DNA of 32,402 nt, taken from positions 1-32,402 of IMG/VR virus record IMGVR_UViG_3300045988_187195. One strand, given 5' to 3'. The DNA comes from a virus. Every line of letters begins with the position of its first letter. The first letter of the stretch is position 1. The translations under genes were made by a program, and so were the position numbers. Of the stretch, positions 926-26,205 are shown piece by piece. The notes beneath the pieces were generated by a model. The model was not told the origin of the DNA. It saw only the letters and a program-made list of their open reading frames with translations, and searched no databases.

Positions 926-1687
926 TTATGCTACTTCAATTAATGGGCCACAATTTACCCAAATTCCACCGATTTTCGCAAGATTCTTTTGCACGTTGAC
1001 TTCATCAACACGGATTCTTGTTACATAGACAACGGCATTTGTTGTATGCAATACGTTATCATTATATCCATCAGAATAGCGAACTTTGTCAACCATACGA
1101 ATTGGAAACCAACCACCTAATTGTGCAAGGTATGCGCATAAATCGCCATTGATTTGTTTCAATCCTTGATTGCCAATCTTCATTTGAACTGATGTTACGT
1201 AGCTTCCTGCGTGCAAGATTTGGTCAATTGCTTCTACAGGTTGTGGAATGCTTGGTTTAACTGCTCCTGTATTTGCGAAACATTTAGGTCTAAAAGCAGT
1301 ATCAAAGGTTGCATAATAAGGTAATTTAATTAAATTGAATGCTCCGCCTTTTCCACCTTGATTCTGACCTAAGAACCATCCTTGCTTTCCGTCAATATCA
1401 GAATCAAAGATTGCGATATGACTGTAAGGCGTAACTCCTGCTACTTCTTTAAAGACTGCGATATCTCCGGCTTGCATGATTGAGACCTCATTACAATAAT
1501 TCAAGATACCATTTGTTTTTCTGTTATTCCAAATATCTTTTACAAATGTACTTGTTGTACAATGAATAGCTTGATAGCCTAAATCAATCATGTACTTTGC
1601 GAATCCGTCCCAACACTGAGCACCATAGTATCCGTCAATGTCGAAAGCTTTGCCTAATACGGCTTTTTTGAAATTTTGATAATTTAT
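926..1687 (-). CDS. Endolysin: N-terminal CHAP amidase/peptidase plus a C-terminal probable cell-wall-binding domain; apparent ATA start
   Basis: YYGAQCWDGF (Cys nucleophile) and SHIAIF (His) are CHAP motifs. GGAGGA (1699..1694) sits 6 nt before ATA 1687..1685, giving the N-terminus (M)NYQNFKKAVLGKAFDIDGYYGAQCWD. The track start TTG 1711 lies upstream of the SD and inside a TATAAT box. Confidence 0.85.
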   Translation of the reverse strand: MNYQNFKKAVLGKAFDIDGYYGAQCWDGFAKYMIDLGYQAIHCTTSTFVKDIWNNRKTNGILNYCNEVSIMQAGDIAVFKEVAGVTPYSHIAIFDSDIDGKQGWFLGQNQGGKGGAFNLIKLPYYATFDTAFRPKCFANTGAVKPSIPQPVEAIDQILHAGSYVTSVQMKIGNQGLKQINGDLCAYLAQLGGWFPIRMVDKVRYSDGYNDNVLHTTNAVVYVTRIRVDEVNVQKNLAKIGGIWVNCGPLIEVA

Positions 1688-2173: not shown

Positions 2174-2180
2174 GATACAC

Positions 2181-2600: not shown

Positions 2601-2682
2601 TTTCTTTTCCTCCTATATAAAATAAATGGGTAGCCTTTCGACTACCCTATAATCCAAAGGCTATTGCCTAATCTCTTTCGAG

Positions 2683-3294: not shown

Positions 3295-3318
3295 TTATAT
3301 TTCCTCCTTTCAACGCAA

Positions 3319-3950: not shown

Positions 3951-4013
3951 TTCGCTCACCTCTTTACACTCATAATTATATTCATGAGCAATCTCAATTT
4001 GTTTCCACATTAA

Positions 4014-4052: not shown

Positions 4053-4318
4053 TAATTTTCATCTAGATACGTTTCCTTTTCACTGCTTTTTCTTGGTGGT
4101 AAAACTGCGCTATACTTCTCTACTTCATCATACTTATTCTTAATCTTTTTAATGATTCTATTTACACTAGAAACGCTCATATTTAATCTATCGGCTTGTT
4201 CTCTGACTGTCCATCCGTATATTCTAGTTCTTAAAATCATTTCTTCATCTTTAGTTAATAAAGCTAGATTAATAAATTCTTCAAGGATAATCTTATTCCA
4301 AGGTGCTTGATTCGTCAT
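4052..4318 (-). CDS. Small sigma-70 region-4-like helix-turn-helix (HTH) regulator, 88 aa
   Basis: TKDEEMILRTRIYGWTVREQADRLNMSVSSVNRIIKKIKNKY resembles a region 4.2 HTH. The gene overlaps the holin 3' end by 26 nt. Confidence 0.5.
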   Translation of the reverse strand: MTNQAPWNKIILEEFINLALLTKDEEMILRTRIYGWTVREQADRLNMSVSSVNRIIKKIKNKYDEVEKYSAVLPPRKSSEKETYLDEN

Positions 4319-4808
4319 TGTCTTGTTCTTCGTTAACGAGTTTATCTGCTACTTCTAATCCTTTAGTTAATACGTTAGGCACGCTATATCCACATTGTAC
4401 AAGGTTCTCAATAATGCTACGCACTTCATTAATGCATAAAGAAGCTAATACGAACCATCCTAATAATGTTGTTACATGGAAATCAATTCCTAGCATTTTT
4501 CCAATTTCTACCAAGAATGCACTGAATGTGAACGCAACTACAATCATAATCCAATAGCCTAGCTTTTTAAGAACTCCAATCCATCCTTTATTGCTATTGA
4601 TTTTGTGATTAATCGCCGACTTCATGCACCCTGTAATATAATCCACAATATTCATAAATAAGAAGAACGCAAATAAATACCAATGCTCACCTAATACGTA
4701 TGTTAATACGGCTACGGCTACACCACACATTGCATTAATCTTATCTAAAAAAAACATACTTCTTGTTATTTGTTTAAATCCTCCATTTTTCTTTTCTATT
4801 AAATTCAC
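4293..4808 (-). CDS. Holin (phage_holin_4 / TcdE-like family); start uncertain (GTG 4808 inside the SD, or ATA 4799)
   Basis: It has three or four TM segments and the motif MNIVDYITGCMKSAI..KINSNKGWIGVLKKLGYW. The 5' context reads TAAGGAGTGAATTTA-ATA-GAA. Confidence 0.8.
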   Translation of the reverse strand: MNLIEKKNGGFKQITRSMFFLDKINAMCGVAVAVLTYVLGEHWYLFAFFLFMNIVDYITGCMKSAINHKINSNKGWIGVLKKLGYWIMIVVAFTFSAFLVEIGKMLGIDFHVTTLLGWFVLASLCINEVRSIIENLVQCGYSVPNVLTKGLEVADKLVNEEQDNDESSTLE

Positions 4809-5826: not shown

Positions 5827-6696
5827 CTATAAACCTAAATACCTTTCATTGTAATAAACCGTGCAAGCTAGATTCGTATCTCCATTGTCTGCCGTATATC
5901 CTATGATATTCTCACCTAACTGAATCGTCATATCATTGAATGATGATGTTCTGTCAACTTTGCCGATACAATTCACACCATTCTTTTTAATCGAAATAGG
6001 TTCTGAAACTAAATCAATTTCTAACACATCACCATTGTGTAGTGTATCTAATACACGAATATATTTATCTTTATTGAATAGTTTCGGATTTGTTACCTCT
6101 CCAAATGCTTCAATAACGGCTCTACAGTATGTTTCTGTATCGCCTTGATTATCAATATAGATTTCTCTAGCGAATGTAAATGTTCCAAAGTTTACGCCTG
6201 TTTCCGGTATTTCAAAATTGAACGCTAAACCTTCACCAATTTCTGCTATATTCCTTGCGAAATCATCAAATGAAAGCAATAAAGGTTGTGTGCATAGAAT
6301 CGTAAAGTTAAGCTCTAAATCTTTGTAGATGTTAGCAGTAGGCAAGCTATACGCATATAACCTTCCTCTGCAATATTTCTTTTCTCCCATGTACTCAACT
6401 ATCACATCAAATATATGAGAATATTGGAAGAAGCGCCGTAGCTTCTCCCTTTCTTCTCTTTTTTCTTCAAGTGAACCTTTAAATGTAGCTTTCACGCTTC
6501 TTTCTTTCGTTGGAATACGTGAACCGATTAATCTAGCACCATTTCCGAATGCATTGTCTTGAGTCGTATATGAAGGTGCTACATAATCAAATCCATCTAA
6601 ACCATCACTAGATGGTATTCTCCATCTTTTGTTGTCGATTTCAAATTCTTTGCCATCATCCCTACGGACAATAACTCTTACTTTATTGATATCTAT
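5827..6696 (-). CDS. Distal tail protein (Dit); apparent ATA start overlapping the tape-measure (TMP) stop (ATAG)
   Basis: GGAGG (6710..6706) sits 9 nt before ATA 6696..6694. The first canonical in-frame codon is GTG 6495, 67 codons downstream. The extended N-terminus (M)DINKVRVIVRRDDGKEFEIDNKRW reads like a real Dit N-terminus. Confidence 0.8.
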   Translation of the reverse strand: MDINKVRVIVRRDDGKEFEIDNKRWRIPSSDGLDGFDYVAPSYTTQDNAFGNGARLIGSRIPTKERSVKATFKGSLEEKREEREKLRRFFQYSHIFDVIVEYMGEKKYCRGRLYAYSLPTANIYKDLELNFTILCTQPLLLSFDDFARNIAEIGEGLAFNFEIPETGVNFGTFTFAREIYIDNQGDTETYCRAVIEAFGEVTNPKLFNKDKYIRVLDTLHNGDVLEIDLVSEPISIKKNGVNCIGKVDRTSSFNDMTIQLGENIIGYTADNGDTNLACTVYYNERYLGL

Positions 6697-9272
6697 TGAA
6701 CAACACCTCCATATCCATATCTTGCTTGCATACGTAACATTCTAGCAATTTCATCCGGACTTTGAACTTTATTGTAGAAGTTGATAGTTTGTCCGTTGTT
6801 ATTTGTTGTTACGCTAGGCATGATTTGAGCCATATCTTTAGCAACGGCACGAATCCACGCTTTATTTTTTTCTAATGGTACGACTGCTTCTGCTCCGTTA
6901 CCTTCCAATAAACCGATTTGACCACGCTTCAATACACCACCACGCTCTAGTCTTGGAATCCTTCCAATGTGTACACCGGGAATCTTATTGATGATACCGA
7001 TTGCGCCGTTAATGCCACCGATAACACCATTTACCATTCCTTTTACACTTCCAACTAATGAACTAACTGCTCCTTCAATTCCACCAAATACACCACTTAC
7101 AAATCCTTTTAAACCGCTCCATGAATTCTGTATTCCTTGTAGAACATTTGAAATTTTATTCCCTACATTATCCATTACACCTTGAACTTTAGACCAAATA
7201 CCATTGAATACATCAGAAACAGTACTCTTAACATTATTGAAATATTTATTGATATTATCAATAACACCTTTAACTTTATCTCCAACTCTGTTCATTGCAT
7301 CTTGAATCTTGCTCCAAATATTGTTTATGATATCCGAAACCGTCTTAAATAAATTGCTTACGAATCCAATAATCGCAGTAACTACTTCGCTAACCTTACT
7401 CCAAATATTCTGAGCAACAGTTAATATTACAGACCAAATATTCGCTACGATTGTAGCTACAATTTGAACAATAGGCATGATAAATCCTAGTATTGTTGCA
7501 ATTGCAGTTCCTACATACGTCACAACCATAGTTATAAATGAAATGATTCCACTTACCACACTTCCAACTACTTGAAGAATAGATGTTATTACAGGAGTCA
7601 TACCGATAACTGTTTGAATAATCTTCTTAATGATTGCTAGAATCGGTGGTCCTACAACGCTAAGAATCTTTTGAGCTTGGTTTACTACATTTTGAATTGC
7701 ACTGCCTATCTTGCTTAAAATTTCTTTTGCAATAGGTTCAAGTGCAACTTTCATTTCGTCAATCGCTTTTCTGACCTCATCAAAAGCAGGAGCTAACACC
7801 TCTGAAACTTGACTTGTCAATTCTGTAATTCCACTTGTATCAATCTTGCTTAATACATTTGAAATTACATCACCAACTTTAGCAAATCCTTGTTGAATGC
7901 CTTGTATAGCTACTGTAATTAATCCGATGATACCTGCAAGAATAGGGGTAATAAGTTCGCCTATTGGAGTAAATGAATCAAGAAATGCACGCCCTAAGCC
8001 ACTTAAAGCGTTCTTTAAGCCACCATTTGCAATATCTTTGACTTTATCCATTGCTCCTTCTACATCTTTATATTTATTTCCTACCGTAGTTAAGGATTCA
8101 ATAAATCCGGCGTTGAAATCTTCTCCCATTGTACCGAAAGCCGTTGCAGATTTATTCAATTTTTCTTGTTCATTTGTAGTCTTTGAAATATCTTCCACAA
8201 TCGCATTCACAACATCTTTTTGAGTTGCTCTTCCTTCTTGCCATGCCTTAAATACATCTTGTGTTTTGGTATCAAAACTATCTAAAGCTCCTTCAATAGT
8301 TCCATCAACTAACCTTGTGGTAACTTCGTTGATTGCGTCATTTACTTTATCAAGGTTATAAGCTCCACCATCTAATCCATTCTGCATTAATTGGAAATAT
8401 TCATCTGCCGAATATCCTGCTTGTGCGAATTTACCGGAGTATTCTGAAATGTTGTCGCCTAACTCATCTGATTTGTTTAAACCATTCTGAGCACCTGTAG
8501 CCATAAGGTCGAAAGCTTCTTTAGAACTAATTCCGAACTGCTTCATTAATTGTTGAGCACCTCTTAATGTTTCGTTCTCATCCATTCCGAATGTGTCTCT
8601 TAATGTCAATAAATCCTCAGTAACATCCTTTAAATCGACATCACTTATGCCTTGCATTTGTTGCTTGACACGTGCCATCATATCGGCAACATCTGAAATA
8701 TCTTCACCAAAATTGTTTGACCAAACATCACGAGCAATGTTTTTAAATTTGCTCATTTCATTGCTTGAAGCACCTGTCTGAGCTTGGAATTTAGCCATAG
8801 CGTCATCTAGTTCTGTAGCTTGGTTAACACCTGTCTTAATTGCTAATGCCATTCCACCGATAGCTCCTGCTACGGCAGTAACACCAACAACACCTCCTAC
8901 GCCTAATCCTGTTAGGGTTTCAGTGATTGTAGTTGCTTCCGGACTAATATTTTGAATCTTCTCTAGTAATCCATCAAACCCACCTTGAATTGATTCTAAG
9001 GCACTGTTTCCTACTTGTTTAAATACATCAAATTTAGAACCTGTTTCTTGCGTTTCTGTTTGTGTATTCTTTTGCTCTTCATTTAAATCTTTAAGTTTAT
9101 TTTTAATCTTTGGTGGTGCTTTTGAACCTTCAGAACCTAACTTATCTATCGCATTTGAAGTATCTTTAATAGCATTTGTAGCTTTATTTGATACATCACT
9201 AACCGATTTAATACCATTTTCAAGACCACTTGTATCTATCTTTGTATCAAACTTTAATGTTCCGTCTGATAT
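6693..9272 (-). CDS. Tape measure protein, 859 aa; apparent ATA start
   Basis: The frame is open from TGA 9275..9273. GGAGG (9288..9284) sits 11 nt before ATA 9272..9270. The first canonical in-frame start is ATG 8852, 140 codons downstream. It has a central hydrophobic block, periodic IWSK repeats, and a C-terminal GGVLKRGQIGLLEGNGAEAVVPL. Confidence 0.85.
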   Translation of the reverse strand: MSDGTLKFDTKIDTSGLENGIKSVSDVSNKATNAIKDTSNAIDKLGSEGSKAPPKIKNKLKDLNEEQKNTQTETQETGSKFDVFKQVGNSALESIQGGFDGLLEKIQNISPEATTITETLTGLGVGGVVGVTAVAGAIGGMALAIKTGVNQATELDDAMAKFQAQTGASSNEMSKFKNIARDVWSNNFGEDISDVADMMARVKQQMQGISDVDLKDVTEDLLTLRDTFGMDENETLRGAQQLMKQFGISSKEAFDLMATGAQNGLNKSDELGDNISEYSGKFAQAGYSADEYFQLMQNGLDGGAYNLDKVNDAINEVTTRLVDGTIEGALDSFDTKTQDVFKAWQEGRATQKDVVNAIVEDISKTTNEQEKLNKSATAFGTMGEDFNAGFIESLTTVGNKYKDVEGAMDKVKDIANGGLKNALSGLGRAFLDSFTPIGELITPILAGIIGLITVAIQGIQQGFAKVGDVISNVLSKIDTSGITELTSQVSEVLAPAFDEVRKAIDEMKVALEPIAKEILSKIGSAIQNVVNQAQKILSVVGPPILAIIKKIIQTVIGMTPVITSILQVVGSVVSGIISFITMVVTYVGTAIATILGFIMPIVQIVATIVANIWSVILTVAQNIWSKVSEVVTAIIGFVSNLFKTVSDIINNIWSKIQDAMNRVGDKVKGVIDNINKYFNNVKSTVSDVFNGIWSKVQGVMDNVGNKISNVLQGIQNSWSGLKGFVSGVFGGIEGAVSSLVGSVKGMVNGVIGGINGAIGIINKIPGVHIGRIPRLERGGVLKRGQIGLLEGNGAEAVVPLEKNKAWIRAVAKDMAQIMPSVTTNNNGQTINFYNKVQSPDEIARMLRMQARYGYGGVVQ

Positions 9273-10233: not shown

Positions 10234-10740
10234 TTATACTTCTGATGTGCCTTCTGTAAATGTTACTGTTCCATCTGCTACCTTTGCAACACCGACACGA
10301 ATATCGCTTGCAAAGTTAATATTAAAGTTGATTTTTGAATCGACACCACTTAATGTATCGAAAATCAATTTAGCGTCAACTTCCCACGCTTTGTATCCTT
10401 TTGTTTTGTCTCCGTCAAACATGAATACAAGTAAAGCTTTTGTATTTACTTCTTCATTGTTTGGTACGGATTTCATCATTTGTTCGTAAATATATTCAAA
10501 GTCATCTTCGCCTTTAATCATTGTTAAATCTTGCGAAATCTGAGGTGAATAACTCTTTAATGATTCTGTTGGGTTCTTATCTGCGATAAAGTCATACGTT
10601 TCAGTTTCACTATTGAATGAAATATCTAAAGTTGTAGACTTTTTAATACGCTTATAAGCTTCTCCCATTTGTAAGAACAATCCAATCATATACTTCTTGA
10701 CTGTCTGTCCTGTATTTACTTCAGTTCCTTGAGTTGCTAT
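10234..10740 (-). CDS. Major tail protein; apparent ATA start
   Basis: AAAGGAG (10755..10749) sits 8 nt before ATA 10740..10738. An in-frame TAA lies two codons upstream. The first canonical start is ATG 10689. The N-terminus is (M)ATQGTEVNTGQTVKKY. Confidence 0.8.
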   Translation of the reverse strand: MATQGTEVNTGQTVKKYMIGLFLQMGEAYKRIKKSTTLDISFNSETETYDFIADKNPTESLKSYSPQISQDLTMIKGEDDFEYIYEQMMKSVPNNEEVNTKALLVFMFDGDKTKGYKAWEVDAKLIFDTLSGVDSKINFNINFASDIRVGVAKVADGTVTFTEGTSEV

Positions 10741-10761
10741 TAATTAAGCTCCTTTCTGTAT

Positions 10762-11175
10762 TTAATCCTTTCTGTATTTAATTTGAATTGTCAAGGCATA
10801 TACTGCTTGACTATCCTCATTTGTGTATAGATATAAACCACTTGAAACGGAAACATCTTGACAATATCTGTTTCCGTCTAGTTGTGGCAATTCTCCGTTT
10901 AAATTCTTTTCATCAATCCAATTTTCTAATTCTTCTAGAAAAACATTATTGTCTTGTCTTTCTGATTCAATTTGTGTATTCCTACGAGCTAGAAATGTGT
11001 AGTATTCAGTACGCATTTGAGAGCCATCAATGTATGTATCTACAATTGCATTAGGCTCTTTATACAATGCATAAGAGATAGCTTGTTGCGCTAACACATC
11101 CGTTTCAATACGTTCATCTATCTGTATATTCCCATAGCCATAAAGCCATTGAATCAACGCTTTTGATACTGTCAT
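10762..11175 (-). CDS. Tail-completion / minor capsid-type connector protein, 137 aa
   Basis: ATG is preceded by GGAGGTAGTGA and coupled by an ATGA overlap. Assignment is by position between the gp10-like and major tail genes. Confidence 0.55.
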   Translation of the reverse strand: MTVSKALIQWLYGYGNIQIDERIETDVLAQQAISYALYKEPNAIVDTYIDGSQMRTEYYTFLARRNTQIESERQDNNVFLEELENWIDEKNLNGELPQLDGNRYCQDVSVSSGLYLYTNEDSQAVYALTIQIKYRKD

Positions 11176-11534
11176 TCACTACCTCCTATCATTTGTTGTG
11201 CTTTCTTTGCGATTGTCTCTGCTCCACCATTTCGCATAGCTTTTTTAAACCAATGGTCTGATTTACCACCAACGAAATGAGCATTCTCTTTGTTGTAATA
11301 CCAACGTCTTGCATATGGAGCGCTTGGTCCGCCCTGTTTTACCAATCCACTTCCGATTTGAGTGTTTCTTGTAGCCGAGTTAATCAATGCTCCTGTGTCT
11401 CTAGGCGTATAGGGGGCCATAAGCCTAATGACTTCAGAATCAATCATTTGTTGAACTCGTCCACGTTCTTCAAGTCCTCTTGATTGTTTAAATTCTTGAA
11501 GTGATTTAACATCAAGTTTAACTTTGATACCTAT
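11172..11534 (-). CDS. HK97 gp10-like head-tail joining protein; apparent ATA start overlapping the upstream stop (ATAG)
   Basis: GGGAGG (11550..11545) sits 10 nt before ATA 11534..11532. The track start TTG 11552 abuts the SD. The product contains LMAPYTPRDTGALINS. Confidence 0.7.
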   Translation of the reverse strand: MGIKVKLDVKSLQEFKQSRGLEERGRVQQMIDSEVIRLMAPYTPRDTGALINSATRNTQIGSGLVKQGGPSAPYARRWYYNKENAHFVGGKSDHWFKKAMRNGGAETIAKKAQQMIGGSE

Positions 11535-12314: not shown

Positions 12315-12419
12315 CTATTTTTCTTTTTGAGGTTTAGCTTCCTCTTTTTTTGTTTGAGGTTTACCTTTTTTAGGCTTTTCAACTTTAGAAGGATAACCCC
12401 ATCCGATTTCTTTCGCCAT
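12315..12419 (-). CDS. Lys-rich micro-protein, 34 aa (MAKEIGWGYPSKVEKPKKGKPQTKKEEAKPQKEK)
   Basis: Not in the track. Its ATG overlaps the major-capsid stop codon (TAATG). Confidence 0.35.
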   Translation of the reverse strand: MAKEIGWGYPSKVEKPKKGKPQTKKEEAKPQKEK

Positions 12420-13288
12420 TACTTAGCACTAGCAGATAAGTAAACACCTGCTACCTTATTTTGGTATACATCAACGATTCCATACTTACGATATTTCAAT
12501 ACATCTGAATCTGATTCAATGTTATTGCTTGCAGGAATTACATTTGAAACGGTGTGTTTATCCCATTTCATAACCGCAGGTTTAGAAACGATTAAGAAGT
12601 TGATTGCGTGACCATCTTCTGCTTTTGTATATCCACCATCTATTTCTGTATCTGCTCCACTCAACAATTTAATCTTTGTATAGAAACGTGTTGAAGGCAC
12701 TGGAACAACCTTTGCAAATCCTTGTAAAGCTTCACGTGATTTATATGTATCTAATGCTTTTACGCTATTTAATAACGTAGGTGTTGAATACAAGATACGT
12801 TGCTCACTCGGAACTTCATCTTCATCCATTTGAGTAACGGCTTTTAATAATGCACTCAAGAATTCTTCTGCACTTGCGTAATCTTCTGAAACTTTTGTGA
12901 TTCCTGTTGTTCCGGCAATTTTAGCAAATGTGTAAGCGTCTGCTTCCGGTGCAACCTTTGTACGCATTAATTCCGCTCCTGCCCTACCAAATGCAATATT
13001 CATTGATTCTGCATTATCTTGTGTATCAACTGCAATCTTAGTTCCTCTATCATAGTCGAATGTAGCAGTCTTCCATTCCAATTTAACTGAGTTTGATGTA
13101 TAACCACTGTTTCTATCGTAGTTTCCTAAACCTTTAACAGAAATTTGTGGATAGATGATTTCTTTTGCATTTGCTCCGGCTCTTACCATTGTAGCGTCTG
13201 CGTTTAAATCACCTGTTACTGAAGCTAACTTATATACCTCATCAAGATTTGAGACATACGTTTTAGCTAATGCAATTTGATTTGCTAT
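12419..13288 (-). CDS. Major capsid protein, 289 aa; apparent ATA start
   Basis: GGAGG (13301..13297) sits 8 nt before ATA 13288..13286. An in-frame TAA lies two codons upstream. The first canonical start is ATG 13189, 33 codons downstream. The N-terminus is (M)ANQIALAKTYVSNLDEVYKLASVTGDL. Confidence 0.85.
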   Translation of the reverse strand: MANQIALAKTYVSNLDEVYKLASVTGDLNADATMVRAGANAKEIIYPQISVKGLGNYDRNSGYTSNSVKLEWKTATFDYDRGTKIAVDTQDNAESMNIAFGRAGAELMRTKVAPEADAYTFAKIAGTTGITKVSEDYASAEEFLSALLKAVTQMDEDEVPSEQRILYSTPTLLNSVKALDTYKSREALQGFAKVVPVPSTRFYTKIKLLSGADTEIDGGYTKAEDGHAINFLIVSKPAVMKWDKHTVSNVIPASNNIESDSDVLKYRKYGIVDVYQNKVAGVYLSASAK

Positions 13289-13301
13289 TAATTAATCCTC
13301 C

Positions 13302-16578: not shown

Positions 16579-17391
16579 CTATTCCTCCTTGACTTTATAT
16601 TTCCAATCCGTGCCAACTTTTCCACTTGCTACTTCGTAAGACCAATCTGCTAGAATCTCATGACCATTCTCATCTACTAGTGTTCCATCTTCTGTTAATA
16701 GAATTGTAGTGAAATGGTTCTCCATAATCATCTTTTCAATATTTGAAATTCTGTTCGATAGCTTCCCTGCCGTATTTGCGTCTAACGTATCTTTTACAGT
16801 TTCAAACCAATCATTGAACTCTGTTCTATTTGCATTCATTTCAGATTCATTCTGAGCTTTAATTTCTTTGAATAGCTCAGTAACTTGGGTGAATAAATCC
16901 AACGATTGTACACTCTTAATAGCGCTTGTAACTACTCCACAACGTGTTGAATCTAATCTTGTATCAGTGATATCTGAACCTTTAACTTCGTTCGCATTGC
17001 CTGTCACTGTTACCGTAGCTAATACTAAATCATAAATAGAATCACTTCTTGTGATTCCATCATTGATATCACTTGCTACTAAGGTAATGTTTCTGTATGC
17101 GTCATTATCATTTAACCTAAGAATAATATTGTAGTTTTTAGTTGCAGTATTCTTTTCTAATGTGATGGTTTCGTCATCTTTCTGCCAATAGAATGCTCCA
17201 TTAATGTTTGCTCGTCCTGCCTTAACTGTTAAGGTTAAGCCTTGAGCTTTCTCAACTCTTAAATGGTCTGAACTAGAATCATCTATGAACACGCCATTCG
17301 TAAAATAGCTTGAGAACAATCTTCTGAAAGCGTCATATAATACTAATCTATCTCCATTTCTTGAGACGAATGGAAAATATGTAGTTGCTAT
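16579..17391 (-). CDS. Tail-fibre-like structural protein (XkdV-like N-terminal region), 270 aa; apparent ATA start overlapping the portal stop (ATAG)
   Basis: An in-frame TGA lies three codons (two sense codons, CGA AGA) upstream. ATA 17391..17389 follows GGAGAGGGGGA. The first canonical start is TTG 17319. The N-terminus is (M)ATTYFPFVSRNGDRLVLYDAFRRLFSSYFTNGVF. Confidence 0.6.
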   Translation of the reverse strand: MATTYFPFVSRNGDRLVLYDAFRRLFSSYFTNGVFIDDSSSDHLRVEKAQGLTLTVKAGRANINGAFYWQKDDETITLEKNTATKNYNIILRLNDNDAYRNITLVASDINDGITRSDSIYDLVLATVTVTGNANEVKGSDITDTRLDSTRCGVVTSAIKSVQSLDLFTQVTELFKEIKAQNESEMNANRTEFNDWFETVKDTLDANTAGKLSNRISNIEKMIMENHFTTILLTEDGTLVDENGHEILADWSYEVASGKVGTDWKYKVKEE

Positions 17392-18791
17392 TCTTCGTCA
17401 TCCCCCTCTCCATCATCTTGAATTTCTTCATTCAACAATTCCGTTGCTTCTTCTTCGGTGAAACCGTATTGTTTCATAAAGTACATAATCTTTAATCTTG
17501 GAATATCAAATGTTAATGCGTCATTCCTTAACGCTTGTGCAGTGCTTTGTTTATCCTCGATATATGTATCGTCATAATCAATTGCAATGTCTAATGAATT
17601 GATATTAAGCTTTCTACCTTGTGTTAATTCATAGAAGTATGCTATTGCTTGAATGATATCTTGAATATATGCAGTAGATTCTTTACGTTGTGAGTTTACT
17701 TCCTTCATTGCGTCTTGATTCTCACCGATATATTCTGTTGCCGTTACAATTCTGCCACTTTCAAAAGTGTATTTTTTTGTACCAAATCCAAACATCATTG
17801 ATAAGATACTTAACGCAGTTTCTAATGATTGAACTACTTCTTGCGTTCTTACTGTTGGATTGTATTCCTGCCATAAAGCTTTTTCTTCCGGTAACTTGTC
17901 TCTGCCTAACTGAACAAATATCTTTTTCATTTGTGGATTCATCTTAATCTTTCCATTCTCGTCTTTCTGCATTAATGCTTCATTCACAAGAACGATTTTA
18001 TCCGATTTCAATAAATCTCTATTCCACATTGTCATTGTTAAATCAATTGTTTTCAAAGGAGCAATTGCACTCCAAATCTTCGGAAATCCGTAACCTTGCA
18101 TTTGTAAGTTGTTTACCTTTGCGTTTCTCATAATTGCAAAAGGCTTTACAACATCTAATTGAACAATCTGAGCACGGTCTTTTATTTCTTCGCCTGTATC
18201 TTTGAAGTAATGTGTTTCTGCGATATATCTTTCGTCTTGTCCTTTTAAGAACATGACCATCACATATATTTTTTTTAGTTTCTCATAATTTACTCCAACG
18301 AAAGCTACTTCCACAATTTCATCATTTATAACAGTTAATGGAAGGATATTCATTGAATCACAGTAGTTAATTCTAATGTCTCCCCCACTAAATGAACCAT
18401 CTTCATAAATTTCGGCATTTGCTACTGTAATATAAGCTCCTACTGTACCATTTGCAGACATTTGCTCAACTTGCTTTCTATACATAACATCAAACCTATT
18501 CTTGTTTAGAATGCCTGTAATAATATCATTTGTAGCACTGTCCTCTGTTGCGTTTATATCTAAGACTTCAATTAGATTTGCGTCATCTTCACACAAACGC
18601 TTTGCAAAGTCTGTCTTATCAAGTGTGTATTCCTCATTATTTAGCGTGTAAGCCGTATGAAATTCCGTTTCGGTATTTGTATACCATTTGTTGCACAATT
18701 CAATAATCTCAATTGCGTTTGTGTCTACATAATACCCTCTTTCGTTAAGGTAGTTTTGAAACCACGGTCTACGTGTGTTAGATGTTTCTAT
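17388..18791 (-). CDS. Portal protein (SPP1 gp6-like), 467 aa; apparent ATA start
   Basis: GGAGG (18802..18798) sits 6 nt before ATA 18791..18789. An in-frame TAA lies two codons upstream. The first canonical start is TTG 18698, 31 codons downstream. The acidic C-terminus and position after TerL support the call. Confidence 0.85.
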   Translation of the reverse strand: METSNTRRPWFQNYLNERGYYVDTNAIEIIELCNKWYTNTETEFHTAYTLNNEEYTLDKTDFAKRLCEDDANLIEVLDINATEDSATNDIITGILNKNRFDVMYRKQVEQMSANGTVGAYITVANAEIYEDGSFSGGDIRINYCDSMNILPLTVINDEIVEVAFVGVNYEKLKKIYVMVMFLKGQDERYIAETHYFKDTGEEIKDRAQIVQLDVVKPFAIMRNAKVNNLQMQGYGFPKIWSAIAPLKTIDLTMTMWNRDLLKSDKIVLVNEALMQKDENGKIKMNPQMKKIFVQLGRDKLPEEKALWQEYNPTVRTQEVVQSLETALSILSMMFGFGTKKYTFESGRIVTATEYIGENQDAMKEVNSQRKESTAYIQDIIQAIAYFYELTQGRKLNINSLDIAIDYDDTYIEDKQSTAQALRNDALTFDIPRLKIMYFMKQYGFTEEEATELLNEEIQDDGEGDDEE

Positions 18792-18794: not shown

Positions 18795-20129
18795 TTACCT
18801 CCTTAAATCTATATATCCACTATGTGTGATAAATGTGTAGCAGAACGAATCCCAATCATCATTGATATTGTTTACGTTCTCATCTTTGGGAATATCTTTC
18901 TTTTCATCCCATACTAATTCGCTCAATGCGTTTATTAAATTCTTACAATGTTCTTCTATCTTTAACCTTCCTGTAACAAGTAAGCTATCAACTGTTATAG
19001 GACGGTCTGCAAGCTCATTCTTCTTAACCGGTGCAATTATACTTCCGTCTAATCCTTCTGCGTAGAAATAAGCTCTAAGCGTGTTTATAAGTGTATTAGA
19101 AGCACTATCCGGAAATATCCATTCAATATATCCATAACACTCAACACAACGCTTATAGAATCTTACAAATGCTTTGCAAAACTTTGTTGCGTCTATGGAA
19201 TTAGATTTTTCCATATCTCCCTCATCTAGTGCCCACATATAATCCCAATCGCTCGTGAATCCTGTTAAGTGCCATGAATACTTTGAGCCATTGTCTCCAA
19301 AGTCAACGCCTATGATTAAATGACTGAACCTTTTTCCTTCTTCCTTCATCTTTTCTTTTAGACTCTGATATTTGAATAAATAAGGTTTGCAGTTATTAGC
19401 AAAATAAGGGAATACAAGTCCTTCGGCTTCTTCCCTTTGTCCTTTTATGTCTCTTTTGTAATAAACGCTATTCTTATCGTATGATTTCAAGACCGTTCTT
19501 ATCTGCTCATCACTTAAAGAATAATTGTCAACTAAGGTGGTATGTCCATAGTTATAACCATATGTAGAATCTTTATTCTGTTGCTCCTCATGATATTTCA
19601 AGAATTCCGTATAATACCAATGATTCTTTCCTTTTGGGTTTAAATCATGAAATATCTTTCTATCGCTTGACGCTATCGTTCTATCCATCACTTCTTGCAA
19701 GAACTCTATGCAACAAAGGTTTGCTTCTGTTACATATGCCATTCCATATGAATAACCATGTATCGCATTCTCTGAGCCTTTCTTCGCACCACCGGCAAAG
19801 AATACAACCTTCTCTCCTACCTTTGTATTGATGTAATAACAATCTTTACCTTCATACTTCCCTACTTTGAATCTATTAGCAAAATAGTTTTGCAAACCAT
19901 ATCCATTACAATCTCCAATATTAACACGTGCAGATGATGTATCTGTTCCTGCTATCAAATGGAATTTATCCGGATGTGTTTCTAATGCAATGCAGAAAGC
20001 GTATGTGTTGAGTACGTTCTTTCCTCCACGCTTGCCACCTTCTAATACATTAAGCCATGAATCAAATGTTTTTTTAAGATAAGTTAATTGCTTTTGATTG
20101 AAAGGCGCAGGCTTATTCAAAGTCTTCAA
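18795..20129 (-). CDS. terL: Terminase large subunit, 444 aa (TTG start)
   Basis: It has a Walker-A-like GGKRGGKN and nuclease-domain acidic motifs. It overlaps the 3' end of terS. Confidence 0.85.
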   Translation of the reverse strand: MKTLNKPAPFNQKQLTYLKKTFDSWLNVLEGGKRGGKNVLNTYAFCIALETHPDKFHLIAGTDTSSARVNIGDCNGYGLQNYFANRFKVGKYEGKDCYYINTKVGEKVVFFAGGAKKGSENAIHGYSYGMAYVTEANLCCIEFLQEVMDRTIASSDRKIFHDLNPKGKNHWYYTEFLKYHEEQQNKDSTYGYNYGHTTLVDNYSLSDEQIRTVLKSYDKNSVYYKRDIKGQREEAEGLVFPYFANNCKPYLFKYQSLKEKMKEEGKRFSHLIIGVDFGDNGSKYSWHLTGFTSDWDYMWALDEGDMEKSNSIDATKFCKAFVRFYKRCVECYGYIEWIFPDSASNTLINTLRAYFYAEGLDGSIIAPVKKNELADRPITVDSLLVTGRLKIEEHCKNLINALSELVWDEKKDIPKDENVNNINDDWDSFCYTFITHSGYIDLRR

Positions 20130-20502
20130 TACTTCTTTCTTTTGCTACATCTGTAATCATAGCTTTATTAATTGCATTTACTTCTGAAGCGTCAAAATGT
20201 GTTTCTACCTTATCTGATTGACCTAAGAATTGTTTGCCTAAGAAAATAGCCATAGCAGGACTCTTTGAAGCTAGTTTAAATTGCGCTCTTCGTAACGAAA
20301 TTCTTCCTTGTGCGCCGAACCTTTTTAAACATTCGGAGAAATCAGTTCCATATGTACGTTTACACCATTTTGATAGTGTCTTATCTGTCGTGTTAAAAAA
20401 ATAGCATACTTCTGCTTGCGTGCATTGAATAGCTAACAATTTTTCAAATTCTTCTTTGTCGAAATCCTTGTTAGGTCTTCCAACTTTTCCATTCGCTATT
20501 AT
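20113..20502 (-). CDS. terS: Terminase small subunit, about 129 aa; apparent ATA start (tandem ATA ATA)
   Basis: The in-frame TAG is at 20517..20515. AAAGGGGA precedes ATA 20502..20500 and ATA 20499..20497. The first canonical start, TTG 20439, has no SD. The N-terminus is (M)ANGKVGRPNKDFDKEEFEKLLAIQCTQAEV. Confidence 0.75.
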   Translation of the reverse strand: MIANGKVGRPNKDFDKEEFEKLLAIQCTQAEVCYFFNTTDKTLSKWCKRTYGTDFSECLKRFGAQGRISLRRAQFKLASKSPAMAIFLGKQFLGQSDKVETHFDASEVNAINKAMITDVAKERSIEDFE

Positions 20503-20523: not shown

Positions 20524-20787
20524 TCACTCAATATTTTTGGTGTGCAGAGCGTAATTTACATTTATACAAGTATTTGTATTCTTTATGTATTCATCAACGT
20601 ATAATTCATTTTTATCGCCGTTATACGTTACTTCGTAATAGTTATCTGTGCTCATAGCACTAATCAATGCTTTATTGTTTTGAAGTACTTTAACCATCCA
20701 TACAACGAACATTTCACTGATTGCAATATTTGGGTTTACTCGAAATACTGCATTCATTGCTAATTCTTGAAATTCTTTTGAACCCAT
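20524..20787 (-). CDS. Hypothetical phage protein, 87 aa
   Basis: ATG is preceded by AAGGAGGAGAAT. It is the first ORF after the tRNA. Confidence 0.6.
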   Translation of the reverse strand: MGSKEFQELAMNAVFRVNPNIAISEMFVVWMVKVLQNNKALISAMSTDNYYEVTYNGDKNELYVDEYIKNTNTCINVNYALHTKNIE

Positions 20788-20804: not shown

Positions 20805-20829
20805 TAAAAGAGCCGAGACAAACGCTCGG
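20805..20829 (-). terminator. Weak hairpin plus a short T tract between the tRNA and the first late ORF
   Basis: On the minus strand: CCGAG, a 7-nt loop, CTCGG, then CTCTTTTAA. It ends only about 8 nt before the SD of the 20524..20787 ORF. Confidence 0.35.
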
Positions 20830-20910: not shown

Positions 20911-20986
20911 TGGTTGCAGGAGAAGGAATTGCACCATTCGACCTCTAGCTAATAAGACTAGTGAGCTACTACTGCTCTATCCTGCT
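20911..20986 (-). tRNA. Initiator-type tRNA with anticodon UAU (would be auto-annotated as tRNA-Ile-TAT), 76 nt, CCA encoded
   Basis: Minus-strand cloverleaf: AGCAGGA-TA-GAGC-AGTAGTA-GCTC-A-CTAGT-CTTATTA-GCTAG-AGGTC-GAA(T)GG-TGCAATT-CCTTC-TCCTGCA-A-CCA. It shows an A1xA72 mismatch, U8, A14, A11:U24 and A73. The anticodon TAT lies at 20954..20952. Deviations: no G18G19, G55, U37, one bulged T in the T stem, and only one G:C pair in the lower anticodon stem. Confidence 0.75.
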
Positions 20987-21003: not shown

Positions 21004-21026
21004 AAAAAATGCTCACGTTGTGAGCA
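21004..21026 (-). terminator. Rho-independent terminator overlapping the end of the late-activator gene
   Basis: On the minus strand: TGCTCAC, loop AAC, GTGAGCA, then TTTTTT. The stop codon TGA lies inside the 3' arm. Confidence 0.65.
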
Positions 21027-21339
21027 CTTTCTTCAAGTTCTTATTTATTTTTCTTGGAATCTCTTCTCGTGCATAACCTACAATATTAGATGTTTTTTCT
21101 GCACTGAATCCCTTTATATATCTATACTCAATCATGGCTCGAGTTGTATCATCAAGTTGGCTTAATTTGTCTTTTACATAATTCATTCTTCTTGCATAAT
21201 CTGCATGAGCCAAGAATAGCTCGGCTTTTAATGGATAAATTGCTTCATCCCTTTGTAGCTCTGCTATCTTTTGCTCATAGTATGTGTAAGATTGACATTC
21301 ACATAAGAAGTGTCTCTTAATATCTTCATACGTGCTCAT
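21013..21339 (-). CDS. Late-gene transcriptional activator (sigma region-4 / ArpU-RinA-like), 108 aa
   Basis: RAMIEYRYIKGFSAEKTSNIVGYAREEIPRKINKNLKK forms an HTH. It lies immediately upstream of the packaging module, and its ATG is coupled by ATGA. Confidence 0.55.
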   Translation of the reverse strand: MSTYEDIKRHFLCECQSYTYYEQKIAELQRDEAIYPLKAELFLAHADYARRMNYVKDKLSQLDDTTRAMIEYRYIKGFSAEKTSNIVGYAREEIPRKINKNLKKVLTT

Positions 21340-21530
21340 GAACTGTATACCTTATACAATCTATTTTCTAATTCGCCAACTTTACTTTTTAATTTCTTAA
21401 TTTCTTGAGCTTGATTATGAATTGTTGCGTTTCTTTCTTTTATAGTTTGATTAAGCTCAATATTCGTCCTTCCTAGTTTATTGTTTTTTGAAATTAACTC
21501 TTTAATCCTTTCTTCATAATTCATTTCTAT
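21336..21530 (-). CDS. Coiled-coil protein, about 64 aa; start ambiguous (ATA 21530, ATG 21524, or GTG 21539 inside the SD)
   Basis: The context reads GGAGGTGGCTTCA-ATA-GAA-ATG. ATA is 8 nt from GGAGG and ATG is 14 nt. Confidence 0.5.
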   Translation of the reverse strand: MEMNYEERIKELISKNNKLGRTNIELNQTIKERNATIHNQAQEIKKLKSKVGELENRLYKVYSS

Positions 21531-21546: not shown

Positions 21547-22134
21547 TTAATTTAATGATTTGATAAAATCACAATACCGCTTTATATAACTCCATTTGTT
21601 TGAATATTTGTAATATTTGCTAGAATGCTCTCCTACACTTATTTGGCTTATCCCTATAACATCTTTACTAGGAATTACCAATACATCTAAAACCTGTTCA
21701 TCATCACTAAGTATGTACAAGATATATATGTCGCAAGTTGGATATGTTTTTTCTAAGTTGAATGTGTAAAAGCTCCCATTCCTACCTCTGTATAAGGTAC
21801 TTGCTTTTACATCAACTTTTACACATTCATTCACTAAAATATCATACGGATGTTTTGTAGACATTTTGATAGCTTCATATCCTTTGTCCTCTATATAATC
21901 CATAAATTTCAATTCATATTTTCTGCCGAAATTTGTTCTACTTGGTTTTGATTCCAAATGTAATTCTTTTGCTAAAGGAAACCATAGATTTCTTTTTGAA
22001 ATTGCATTGCCTAATTTTGAATCTCCATAGTATTCTTCAACTTCTCTTCTTGTAGGCATTCTGTTTAATCCTGTATCAATAATCATTTCTTTGATTTGTG
22101 ATTTTATCTTTTCTTCTGTCCAATGTTCTCTTAT
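21547..22134 (-). CDS. PD-(D/E)XK-type endonuclease-like protein with an N-terminal WTEEK repeat motif, 195 aa; apparent ATA start
   Basis: GGAGG (22145..22141) sits 6 nt before ATA 22134..22132. An in-frame TAA lies two codons upstream. ATG 22086 has no SD. The C-terminus has PYDILVNECVKVDVKAS (D..(D/E)xK). Confidence 0.55.
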   Translation of the reverse strand: MREHWTEEKIKSQIKEMIIDTGLNRMPTRREVEEYYGDSKLGNAISKRNLWFPLAKELHLESKPSRTNFGRKYELKFMDYIEDKGYEAIKMSTKHPYDILVNECVKVDVKASTLYRGRNGSFYTFNLEKTYPTCDIYILYILSDDEQVLDVLVIPSKDVIGISQISVGEHSSKYYKYSNKWSYIKRYCDFIKSLN

Positions 22135-24756: not shown

Positions 24757-25491
24757 CTATGCTCTTAATATTTCCCTTCTCACTCGTTCCATTTCTTTCT
24801 GTACATCTGCATACGATTGATTGCTTTCTTGTGCATAGAATTTAGAATCAAGTTTTACAGGATTGTTCTTATTTCTTTTCATCCATTCATCATGTACCCA
24901 TTTTTGAATCACTAGTGAATGGTTCTTGTATTTCTTTCCACTCGTTTCAATATACTCATCCAAAATCTTTATATGCTCATCTAATGAATCACCATATAAA
25001 TCTAATAGGTGTGTGTGTTCTTTATCTGTAAGTAACACGTGTGAATATTCACCGTATTTGTGTTTACTTACTTTTAATTTATTATTAATTTTAGTATTAA
25101 TAACTTTATTATTATCTGTATACATTTCTACACTAGGGGTAGTATAAAAATTTACACTAGGGTCATGTACGTTTTTATATGGGGTAGTATAAAAATTTAC
25201 ACTAGGGTTGATATATAATTTTCGTTGCAATACTTGTTTTGTTCCTTCTTTATAAATCAACTCTAAACTGATATACCCTTTTTTAACTAATGCACTAATC
25301 CATTTTTTTACCGCAGATACTGAACAATGATACAAATCTGCGAAATATTGATTTGTTGCCCAACAATATCCTTTTTCATTACACAATGATGTAATTTCTC
25401 CATACAATAGTTTTGCGTTTGGTGGCAATTCTTCATCATATCGAACTTCCGCAGGTATTATTGCGTAATACGATTTCTTTAGTTCTGATAT
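24757..25491 (-). CDS. Replisome organiser / replication initiator (N-terminal winged HTH, DnaD-like C-terminus) containing the iterons; apparent ATA start
   Basis: GGAGG (25504..25500) sits 8 nt before ATA 25491..25489. Both track GTG codons lie inside the SD. The product contains LPPNAKLLYGEITSLCNEKGYCWATNQYFADLY. Confidence 0.65.
   Translation of the reverse strand: MSELKKSYYAIIPAEVRYDEELPPNAKLLYGEITSLCNEKGYCWATNQYFADLYHCSVSAVKKWISALVKKGYISLELIYKEGTKQVLQRKLYINPSVNFYTTPYKNVHDPSVNFYTTPSVEMYTDNNKVINTKINNKLKVSKHKYGEYSHVLLTDKEHTHLLDLYGDSLDEHIKILDEYIETSGKKYKNHSLVIQKWVHDEWMKRNKNNPVKLDSKFYAQESNQSYADVQKEMERVRREILRA
25129..25208. repeat. Iterons: a 28-bp perfect direct repeat x2 plus a third partial copy (candidate origin)
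   Basis: GGGGTAGTATAAAAATTTACACTAGGGT occurs at 25136..25163 and 25181..25208. The core ACACTAGGG also occurs at 25130..25138. An AT-rich tract lies just upstream (25081..25120). Confidence 0.7.
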
Positions 25492-25492: not shown

Positions 25493-25840
25493 TTAATCAC
25501 CTCCACCTAAAACAACCACTTGCTTTAGGATTTCATCAATGATTTTGTCGGTGTATTTTATATAGCATTTGATTCTTTTATCACTAAAATATCCGTCAAT
25601 TTTGCGCAACGCTTTATATATTGCAATTATTCTTTCTCGGTTTAATCCTTCTTTTGTGTAGTCATTACACCCATTTAATCTATCCATGAATTCCTTTGTA
25701 ATGTCATAACAAGTACACATTTCTTCATACACGCCAATTGCATTTGTATCTTTTCCAGTTTCTTCAATTAAGTAAAATGAATTAAACTCATCAAAATAAA
25801 TTTGCTTTGCTACATTTACTGCCATTTCTTCTTCTCTCAT
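25493..25840 (-). CDS. Hypothetical protein, 115 aa
   Basis: The ATG is coupled by ATGA to the rusA stop. Confidence 0.6.
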   Translation of the reverse strand: MREEEMAVNVAKQIYFDEFNSFYLIEETGKDTNAIGVYEEMCTCYDITKEFMDRLNGCNDYTKEGLNRERIIAIYKALRKIDGYFSDKRIKCYIKYTDKIIDEILKQVVVLGGGD

Positions 25841-26205
25841 AAAATCTCTACCTCTATCCTTGGATTCTCCTTATCTGTAAATACTGAATGATTCACTTGA
25901 TTAATGTATTTCCTTGAATCATCCTCTAATATTCCTGTTCTAACTAATGAATCTTGAATGAATTTAGTTGCAAATGTGATATTGTCTATATCTCTTTTGT
26001 TATTTAGCTCATACCAATTAACATTTAATTTAATTGGGTAGTTCTTAACTTCGTAAATTTCACCAAAGTTTACTGCCTGTAAGATATAAGCCATTACAAG
26101 ACGCTCATTCTTTTTCTTCATTTCTGCTCCTTTGTAACGATTTGTTCTGCAAGCATTAATATATTCATTCAATCCATCTAGTTTTCCTTTTATTACAAAC
26201 TTTAT
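25837..26205 (-). CDS. rusA: RusA-family Holliday junction resolvase, 122 aa; apparent ATA start overlapping the upstream stop (ATAA)
   Basis: GGGGGA sits 6 nt before ATA 26205..26203, giving (M)KFVIKGKLDGLNEYINACR. The RDIDNITFATKFIQDSLVRTGILEDD motif is present. The track ATG 26283 would overlap the upstream gene by 82 nt. Confidence 0.75.
   Translation of the reverse strand: MKFVIKGKLDGLNEYINACRTNRYKGAEMKKKNERLVMAYILQAVNFGEIYEVKNYPIKLNVNWYELNNKRDIDNITFATKFIQDSLVRTGILEDDSRKYINQVNHSVFTDKENPRIEVEIL

Follow-up and report, generated by a model that had tools for sequence, protein, structure and literature searches.

A phage-borne initiator-type tRNA with anticodon UAU and its probable pairing with ATA start codons in temperate gut phages

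Results

An initiator-type tRNA gene ahead of the packaging genes

The window, that is, the whole stretch of 32,402 nucleotides of the IMG/VR virus record IMGVR_UViG_3300045988_187195 that was analysed, represents a Firmicute-type temperate siphophage of ~33% G+C, with nearly all genes on the minus strand in the order integrase, HTH repressor, replication module, SSB, weakly sigma-like regulator, tRNA, DUF6275, terS, terL, portal, head, tail, holin and CHAP lysin. The tRNA gene in question, of 76 nt with anticodon UAU and encoded CCA, lies at 20911..20986 (minus strand, as for all window features below) and is accompanied by genes that begin at ATA. Read from 20986 to 20911, its acceptor strands AGCAGGA and UCCUGCA form six base pairs, including G2:C71 and C3:G70, leave A1xA72 unpaired and are followed by A73 and CCA. 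After the linker UA, the D stem GAGC/GCUC encloses the loop AGUAGUA and contains A11:U24; a single A leads to the anticodon stem CUAGU/GCUAG (A29:U41, G30:C40 and U31.G39, thus one G:C pair), whose loop CUUAUUA places the anticodon at 20952..20954 and a U at position 37. The variable loop AGGUC and a T arm of GAAUGG and CCUUC around UGCAAUU complete the molecule, with G55 in the T loop, one bulged base in the T stem and no GG in the D loop. All structural features described in the original prediction, which had been made from the letters of this DNA, were thus present.

The gene was matched by the Rfam model RF00005 at 48.0 bits (gathering score 29; E = 1.8e-7) and is the only Rfam match in the window. 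The cloverleaf is its minimum-free-energy fold, with a z-score of −0.75 that is not significant alone. Of the detectors named in the original prediction, Infernal thus recovered the gene and ARAGORN reported nothing in the window; ARAGORN labels sister alleles and diverged relatives ‘tRNA-Ile(tat)'.

Four tRNA types share the initiator features

Pattern scans of IMG/VR and metagenomes yielded ~100 loci with 11 distinct initiator-type tRNA(UAU) sequences of four types, all from gut samples where the source is named; 30 further human-gut contigs were found in the metagenome scan, with no further tRNA types. Type A is that of the window, with the anticodon stem CUAGU/GCUAG. Type B (L030-L033, L036, L037; L numbers denote the loci and contigs compared) is identical except for UCGGU/GCCGA in this stem, that is, three compensatory pairs. 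Type C (L035, L078, L129; CGCAAGG..CCUUGCA) has a canonical D loop and the T loop UUCGAUU, and type D (L076, L077, L082, L090 and others; GGCAGAG..CUCUGCA) has a canonical elbow; they score 56.5 and 48.8 bits, respectively, with RF00005.

When the 11 sequences were aligned, 99.5% of the cells were paired, as against 41–55% in slid registers, six stem pairs (three in the acceptor and three in the anticodon stem) carried changes on both sides, and the covariation score was reached by none of 500 shuffles. Covariation thus backs every helix that varies in the family. Invariant across the four types are G2:C71, C3:G70, A4:U69, A11:U24, G30:C40, the loop CUUAUUA, A72, A73 and CCA. The unpaired 1x72 position noted in the original prediction is AxA in types A and B, CxA in type C and GxA in type D, and is never paired; as nucleotide 1 can be A, C or G opposite an invariant A72, selection acts on the unpaired state and not on a particular base.

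All four types align with the E. coli initiator tRNA gene metY and with the tRNA(CAU) of the prophage Javan59 (an initiator tRNA scoring 68 bits in Rfam), with which they share the D arm of initiators, the AGGUC loop and the terminal GCAACCA; this bears out the likeness to tRNA-fMet noted in the original prediction. Position 11:24, given there as A:U in place of the Y:R of elongators, is A:U in all 11 distinct sequences, whereas in distant relatives the D stem of the elongator tRNA-Ile(UAU) is GCUC..GAGC, with C11:G24, and 1:72 is paired. The nearest annotated phage tRNAs are tRNA-fMet or tRNA-Met, and a search of the tRNA against E. coli genomes at the DNA level gave no match. Of the classical marks of an initiator, those of the acceptor and D stems are present, save that 4:69 is A:U, whereas neither a CAU anticodon nor the full run of three G:C pairs is found.

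Two caveats of the original prediction apply to part of the family. The reduction to one G:C pair holds for the window, but type B keeps two; the odd elbow is likewise real in the window but peculiar to types A and B, in which changes of the D loop (to AGUAGUA, which lacks GG) and of the T arm (to UGCAAUU, the bulged base being U, C or G) go together, types C and D retaining the canonical GG and UUCGAUU. U37 and U31.G39 are common to all UAU types and to the CUU variant described below.

The region upstream of terS serves as a tRNA slot across the TerL family, with contents that differ by phage. In seven loci (L096, L099, L101, L102, L105, L110, L122) it is occupied, ~1.2 kb upstream of TerL, by an elongator-type tRNA-Ile(UAU), and in five others (L089, L097, L104, L116, L124) by tRNA-Gly, -Lys, -Arg, -Glu or an initiator-like tRNA(CAU), the last in L124. 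The Streptococcus anginosus prophages Javan59 and Javan74 (MK449005.1) are 78% identical to type C over positions 1–72, at an unannotated site.

These data bear on the possibility that the gene is a degenerate tRNA or tRNA-like remnant (an att relic, or a processing or terminator element) with no translational role, the ATA starts then stemming from lax host initiation. The window allele would suit such a remnant in that it lacks G18G19 and U55, has a bulged T stem, escapes ARAGORN, has a fold z-score short of significance and is flanked by terminator-like hairpins. Against it stand the compensatory changes in two stems, the functional positions invariant across four types and the canonical elbows of types C and D, to which the distribution of the ATA starts, given below, is to be added.

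ATA starts behind strong Shine-Dalgarno sites

Among the ~40 window genes led by a Shine-Dalgarno (SD) site, 12–14 begin at ATA, most of them without a usable ATG, GTG or TTG; the ATA starts proposed in the original prediction are thus found, behind strong SD sites. The ATA lies 5–9 nt 3′ of the SD site at the 5′ end of the open stretch (for example, AAGGAGGtaagaaATA in the portal, AAGGAGGTGgcaaattgaATA in the tape measure and AAGGAGGattaattaATA in the major head gene), and no canonical codon occurs for 17–140 codons; in late open reading frames (ORFs), the open stretches before the first ATG, GTG or TTG measure 25, 32, 26, 34, 140 and 82 codons. A ranking of the window by anti-SD binding energy returned 14 ATA starts, all at −9.3 kcal mol−1 or stronger, together with ~30 ATG and one GTG, and no ATT, ATC or CTG starts. 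A scan without codon preselection returned 14 SD-led ORFs lacking a canonical start, of which 12 have ATA at start spacing and the remaining two are internal SD-like sites.

The ATA-started genes include terS (20113..20499; GAAAGGGGA-N7-ATA), which matches a small-subunit terminase profile, conserves its ATA in relatives and reaches its first canonical codon 20 codons after the ATA (25 into the open frame), and the portal gene (17388..18791; AAGGAGG-N6-ATA), in which ATA is found in 18 of 18 aligned relatives and the phrog_533 alignment reaches into the N-terminal extension. PHROG profiles align from residue 2–3 with the head protein encoded at 16579..17391 (ATA in 16 of 16 relatives), and residues 2–288 of the major head protein (12419..13288) correspond to positions 2–294 of phrog_422. 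The profile alignments of the distal tail protein Dit (5827..6696) and of the putative major tail protein (10234..10740) also extend into the ATA-started extensions; the latter takes its function from gene order only, and phrog_3099, a family of unknown function, aligns with it from residue 10. In the tape measure gene (6693..9272), 140 codons precede the first ATG, GTG or TTG, and its ATA, like that of Dit, is also found in type D. Further ATA-started genes encode a minor capsid/connector protein (11172..11534), a holin (4293..4769; Phage_holin_4_1 at residues 21–141) and a CHAP-domain lysin (926..1687).

Many of the ATA genes are late genes, but the set is not limited to these: it includes the RusA-like resolvase (25837..26205), the HTH_36 replication-type protein (24757..25491; ATA in 12 of 12 relatives) and two further genes of the early region. 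In the HTH_36 gene, the GTG five codons upstream of the ATA falls inside the SD site. Of these two, one encodes a protein of unknown function (phrog_28936; 21547..22134), and the other is a small ORF (21336..21530) with an ambiguous start, either ATA at 21530 or ATG two codons downstream. ATG is used by the lysogeny genes, SSB, dUTPase, the scaffold and several connectors. The codon after the start specifies Ala, Ser, Gly or Thr in 8 of 14 ATA genes (four of them GCN), versus ~7 of 31 ATG genes, a bias that could reflect expression level or N-terminal processing. In a European Nucleotide Archive contig of the same phage (ENA ERZ1311564; L042), automatic calls give a terS of 46 amino acids (aa) and a portal of 436 instead of 467 aa, and shorten the major head (256 versus 289 aa), tape measure (719 versus 859 aa) and Dit (222 versus 289 aa).

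ATA starts track the tRNA across relatives

A TerL-based search produced a graded series of relatives, whose start codons were called with a uniform pipeline. Since ATA and ATT were over-called in control phages beside real ATG or GTG starts, a non-canonical codon was counted as a start only if no canonical codon lay within three codons. The 100 loci with the initiator-type tRNA(UAU) (1.29 Mb) gave 834 ATG, 153 GTG, 9 TTG, 319 ATA, 1 ATT, 0 ATC and 3 CTG; ATA thus makes up 24% of the called starts (319/1319), and occurs in all such loci. In the 36 TerL relatives without the tRNA (317 ATG, 40 GTG, 29 TTG, 6 ATA, 7 ATT, 15 ATC and 12 CTG), ATA is at noise level, with 6 of ~426 starts, no more than ATT or ATC. 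It accounts for 2 of 125 starts in the seven loci with an elongator-type tRNA-Ile(UAU) in the slot (105 ATG, 9 GTG, 3 TTG, 2 ATA, 0 ATT, 1 ATC, 5 CTG), for 1 of 64 in the phages phiCD111 and TP712 (52 ATG, 3 GTG, 7 TTG, 1 ATA, 1 ATT, 0 ATC, 0 CTG), and for 0 of 14 in Javan59 with its initiator tRNA(CAU) in the slot (13 ATG and 1 ATT; no GTG, TTG, ATA, ATC or CTG). In ~31 kb of host DNA (the flank of L157 plus L158), 13 ATG, 1 TTG and no ATA (0 of 14) were called. The co-occurrence of tRNA and ATA starts in related phages, which the original prediction had raised, is therefore strict, and with the ATA starts vanishing exactly where the tRNA is absent and missing from the sampled host genes, a tRNA remnant beside laxly initiated genes is exceedingly unlikely.

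The nearest relative without the tRNA (L079; TerL 46% identical, 30% G+C) has no ATA among its 17 starts; its major head protein aligns from residue 1 (62% identity), with ATG at the very codon that is ATA in the window, whereas types A, C and D all have ATA at the major-head start. Among relatives with 83–100% flank identity, ATA is kept in 102 of 106 alignments (the other four, at the RusA start, are gapped), ATG starts are ATG or, in a few cases, GTG, and no exchange between ATA and ATG was seen. Across types A, C and D, ATA is retained in terS, major head, tape measure, Dit, connector and RusA, and ATG in scaffold, SSB, dUTPase and two connectors; the exception is the sigma-like gene, which has ATG in type A and ATA in types C and D. 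This stable coexistence suggests that the two states are functionally different and not interchangeable.

At 17435 in the Clostridium phage phiCD111 (L043), a very strong SD site (−14.6 kcal mol−1) precedes an ATT from which a 697-codon frame runs. The tail gene is annotated to begin ~100 codons further on (17729), which could mean an ATT start or an error of annotation.

The same series bears on the possibility that the gene is an elongator tRNA-Ile(UAU) serving internal AUA codons, with no connection to the ATA starts, at which the host initiator would then act inefficiently. Such a role would agree with the ARAGORN label of the relatives, with the true elongators in the slot of distant relatives and with the isoleucyl-tRNA synthetase (IleRS) of some Firmicutes, which accepts UAU as cited in PMC9976931 (its references 44 and 45). 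However, within the phage genes Ile is encoded by ATA only 74 times, less often than by ATT (243) or ATC (103), which argues against codon supplementation, and the phages with genuine elongators are without ATA starts. A11:U24, U37 and the 1x72 mismatch, which persists with any of three bases as nucleotide 1, are also at odds with an elongator, as is the CUU/AAG pair presented below, and we consider this explanation very unlikely. As a class, ordinary elongator tRNA-Ile(UAU) was rejected for this gene: it shares with that class the anticodon alone, and has an unpaired 1x72, A11:U24 and U37 where the class has a paired 1:72, Y11:R24 and a purine at 37 (the t6A37 site).

A second anticodon and start codon pair on the same genes

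IMG/VR was also scanned for tRNAs that combine the D arm and variable loop of this initiator type with a different anticodon. Two contigs of 30% G+C, L164 and L166, carry a tRNA directly upstream of terS (L164 13640-13679, minus strand; the same in L166) with acceptor strands CGCAGGG and CCCUGCA followed by ACCA, the linker UA, a D arm GAGC AGUAUGGUA GCUC, a G, the anticodon arm UUGGU CUCUUUA GCCAA, the variable loop AGGUC and the T arm AUAGG UUCAAAU CCUAU. Its anticodon is CUU, with C1xA72, A11:U24, U31.G39 and U37. In L164, SD sites followed by AAG open terS (13204-13587), portal (10380-11837), major head (7001-7894), tape measure (1659-3956) and a 147-aa ORF (4978-5421), all on the minus strand; the first canonical codon of the major head gene is at +126, and the 147-aa ORF has no ATG, GTG or TTG anywhere. 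Between the structural genes of L164 and the window, tblastn gave only weak matches (21–26% identity; minor capsid and tape measure). With AAG on terS, portal, major head and tape measure of an unrelated phage, the second pair thus marks the same functional genes as the first.

Initiator-type tRNAs with anticodon CCU and C1xA72 were found in L160, L163, L165 and L169, and also in L161 and L167. In this group, AGG starts are candidates for the portal gene (first canonical codon at +21) and for a small ORF just downstream of the tRNA (for example, L165 809-2107 and 3764-3976, minus strand), and CCU/AGG is a candidate pair with weaker support than ATA and AAG. U37 recurs in the UAU, the CUU and one CCU variant. 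No initiator with GAU or AAU was found in the scan, and no CTG starts lie near the CAG initiator-like tRNA of L177.

UAU initiator-like tRNAs in the genome contigs L038-L041 and in L029/L034, of high G+C, were not counted as members, as they have no ATA-start signal. These are L029/L034 (IMG/VR, 64% G+C), L039 (metagenome-assembled genome (MAG) of Terracidiphilus), L041 (Roseobacter insulae), L040 (Collinsella MAG) and L038; L040, whose 5′ half does not match, and L038 resemble partial copies, possibly att-site remnants. Other initiator-like tRNAs in the viral contigs L171-L175, L176/L177 and L162 have the anticodons CAC (59–60% G+C), CAG (60% and 37% G+C) and CGU.

The gene-by-gene conservation and the AAG starts both bear on a further explanation, in which the tRNA is a replacement or decoy initiator whose loop was mutated (C34U, A37U) to escape a tRNA-fMet-cleaving nuclease of the host or of a rival, AUG still being read by U:G wobble and the ATA starts being a tolerated, AT-biased by-product. 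Changes in the anticodon loop by which phage tRNAs evade tRNA-targeting defences have been described (PMC10264068); related phages (Javan59, L124) have an ordinary initiator tRNA(CAU) in the slot, the genome is of 33% G+C, and the recurrent U37 would also fit. However, the ATA and ATG states are conserved gene by gene over ~50% protein divergence, unlike a neutral flux, and the unrelated CUU/AAG phage marks the same set of terS, portal, major head and tape measure. Moreover, AAG is two substitutions from ATG and unreadable by a CAU or a wobbling initiator, and would thus be no tolerated product of drift. Such a decoy is therefore judged unlikely.

Neighbouring features, integration site and host

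Directly upstream of the tRNA lies a putative regulator resembling sigma-70 region 4 (21013..21339; ATG start), with a match to phrog_1740 (E = 4.4e-4) and no Pfam match; its counterpart in Javan59 matches Sigma70_r4. Between the tRNA and terS lies a DUF6275 gene (20524..20787). The original prediction had put the tRNA between a late activator and terS: the upstream gene is indeed sigma-like, though weakly, and terS is not the immediate neighbour on the other side. Where the sigma-like gene ends, a terminator-like hairpin with a T-run (TTTTTT; 21004..21026, palindrome 21010-21026) precedes the tRNA by 18 nt, and a second one (CCGAGCGTTTGTCTCGG followed by CTCTTTT; 20805..20829) lies downstream of the tRNA, before the packaging and late genes; both are putative terminators, and hairpins analogous to the second come after the tRNA in types C and D. 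A promoter scan around the tRNA gave 4 hits versus 5.5 expected, not above chance; −10-like hexamers upstream of the type A and C tRNAs are not conserved across types. In L035, a short tRNA-like minihelix (CGCCAAC ... GAGTTCGATTCTC .. GTTGGCG; ~2165-2215, minus strand) between the sigma-like gene and the type C tRNA may be a tRNA remnant.

The window locus had no DNA-level match among INPHARED phages, and its TerL is at most 41% identical to that of known phages. A junction between prophage and host was found in L157 by integrase look-up. Among named proteins, the host EPSP synthase is closest to those of uncultured Bacillota MAGs (68%), Floccifex (61%), Holdemanella (59%) and Faecalicoccus (58%), which points to an uncultured Erysipelotrichaceae-like bacterium of the human gut as host. 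The integration site (L157 9878-10001), adjacent to the aro operon, is bordered by a Ser/Thr-kinase-like gene and a gene for a protein of 137 aa, and L158 5410-5444 is an empty integration site.

Discussion

To our knowledge, every natural initiator tRNA has the anticodon CAU, changed anticodons being only a laboratory trick. The gene at 20911..20986 very probably encodes an initiator tRNA of tRNA-fMet descent whose anticodon changed from CAU to UAU and which starts translation at matching AUA codons; this interpretation, offered in the original prediction, is supported by the comparative evidence from genomes. Full-text searches of the literature turned up no natural AUA initiator of phage origin, in agreement with the earlier view that a phage-borne one is undescribed, and the whole system, a shifted initiator with the starts that appear to match it, is without a described natural counterpart. 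As read from the genomes, this is phage code reprogramming, with ATA apparently used in a role that is absent from the sampled host genes and tracks the tRNA across relatives.

In the proposed mechanism, the 1x72 mismatch, G2:C71, C3:G70, A73 and A11:U24 would direct the tRNA to formylation, IF2 binding, EF-Tu rejection and the ribosomal P site, where its UAU anticodon would pair with AUA 5–9 nt downstream of strong SD sites. About a quarter to a third of the phage genes would start in this way, among them terS, portal, head, tail, tape measure, Dit, lysis, RusA and replication genes. The identity elements of the formyltransferase are the 1–72 mismatch, helped by A73, G2:C71, C3:G70 and G4:C69, plus R11:Y24; the mismatch is its major determinant and also the basis of EF-Tu rejection, and formylation is independent of the attached amino acid (PMC9976931). 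In the UAU clade, A73, G2:C71 and C3:G70 are invariant, and position 4:69 is A:U in place of G4:C69 in the determinant set. Engineered initiators with mutant anticodons start at the cognate codon (PMC11744186; Pallanck & Schulman 1991, as cited in PMC11822699), and the original prediction had drawn on experiments of this kind in E. coli for the plausibility of the mechanism. At AUA, the wild-type initiator reaches 0.1–1% of AUG in E. coli (PMC11744186), and AUA initiation amounted to 7.5–15% of AUG in two older in vivo cases. Because the host initiator tRNA(CAU) reads AUA poorly, full expression of the ATA genes should depend on the phage tRNA.

The anticodon is the main determinant for IleRS, and the methionyl-tRNA synthetase needs C34. 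The amino acid on the UAU tRNA is thus more likely to be Ile than Met; Lys would be the corresponding choice for the CUU variant.

Every essential lytic module has ATA genes and the lysogeny genes have ATG, which suggests that the purpose of the ATA/tRNA pair is a translational lock or private channel for lytic genes; this is the reading we prefer, and its main competitor is an origin in the evasion of defences, followed by ratcheting. A wider proposal, to which we give even chances, is that temperate phages of low-G+C gut bacteria possess private start codons (UAU/ATA, CUU/AAG and possibly CCU/AGG), read by families of phage initiators that have left the otherwise universal CAU, on the same key genes (terS, portal, major head, tape measure and lysis genes) as a translational lock. 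The lytic programme would then depend on the phage tRNA, leaky prophage transcripts would stay silent, the genes would be denied to satellites and competitors, and the proteins may begin with formyl-Ile or formyl-Lys.

Several observations weigh against an AUA initiator. In the tRNA itself, the CAU anticodon of classical initiators is replaced by UAU in every member of the clade, only one of the G:C pairs at 29-31:39-41 is left in the window and type A and two in types B and C, U37 is without precedent, and the window allele departs from the canonical elbow (it lacks G18G19, has G55 and bulges in the T stem) and is passed over by ARAGORN. With respect to sampling, the ~100 positive loci are redundant and form a single ATA clade, albeit with four diverged tRNA types and TerL identity down to 49%, and the host sample of ~31 kb is small. 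Initiator-like tRNAs with UAU or CAG in L029, L039, L041 and L177 have no matching start signal. Finally, one optimised E. coli system in vitro used AUA and AUG equally well (PMC5499595), so that dependence on the phage tRNA may be quantitative or partial and not absolute.

If the AUA initiator is real, it would be the first orthogonal initiation system from nature. Reprogramming of the genetic code by phages would then extend to initiation, and the lysis-lysogeny programme would gain a further layer of control. Such an initiator would imply that the three G:C pairs, A37 and the elbow can be relaxed in initiators, but the 1x72 mismatch and A11:U24 cannot. It would also explain a systematic annotation error, in which gene callers truncate or miss ATA genes and ARAGORN misses the tRNA or names it tRNA-Ile, and would supply ready-made parts for synthetic biology and phage biocontainment.

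Comparison with known systems

With bacterial tRNA-fMet (E. coli metY, NC_000913.3 3318213-3318289), the phage tRNA shares the unpaired 1x72 with A72, G2:C71, C3:G70, A73-CCA, the D arm GAGCAG..GUAGCUC with A11:U24, and G30:C40; the variable loop is AGGUC here and AGAUC in metY, and the anticodon arm of type B differs from that of metY at positions 31, 34, 37 and 39 only. Unlike tRNA-fMet, it has UAU, U37, U31.G39, one or two G:C pairs, A4:U69 and A, C or G in place of C as nucleotide 1, is encoded by a prophage and, in the window, departs from the canonical D/T-loop elbow. In some initiators of Mollicutes, too, the middle pair is all that is left of the three G:C pairs.

The tRNA(CAU) of Javan59 (MK448817.1 20081-20153; L155 12001-12073) has in common with it the slot between the sigma-like regulator and terS, C1xA72, A11:U24 and AGGUC, but keeps CAU and A37, in a phage without ATA starts. 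Elongator tRNA-Ile(UAU), as in Mycoplasma mobile, Lactobacillus plantarum and the seven loci named above, has the same anticodon and, in the phage relatives, the same slot; it differs in its paired 1:72, C11:G24 and A37, and the relatives that carry it lack ATA starts.

In animal mitochondria, AUA is likewise a start codon, read through tRNA-Met with f5C34; there, however, it is a modified C34 of CAU in a single tRNA-Met for both initiation and elongation, with no dedicated UAU initiator. Stop codons are reportedly recoded in phages by phage-encoded suppressor tRNAs, as Ivanova et al. 2014 and Borges et al. 2022 are said to have described. There, too, a phage tRNA gives a codon a meaning that it lacks in the host, structural and lysis genes are enriched in the recoded codon and gene callers are misled; that recoding acts at termination and elongation with suppressor elongators, whereas the phage UAU system would act at initiation.

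The engineered anticodon-mutant initiators (the amber initiator tRNA(CUA), i-tRNA(AAC) and those of Pallanck & Schulman with GAU, GAC or GAA) resemble it in that the anticodon dictates the start codon and the matching genes depend on the tRNA, a dependence that an amber initiator has turned to phage biocontainment (bioRxiv 10.1101/2024.07.29.605542). Those are laboratory constructs, whereas the UAU tRNA and its apparent AUA starts are natural, phage-encoded and conserved in diverged phages, and extend to 25–30% of the phage genes.

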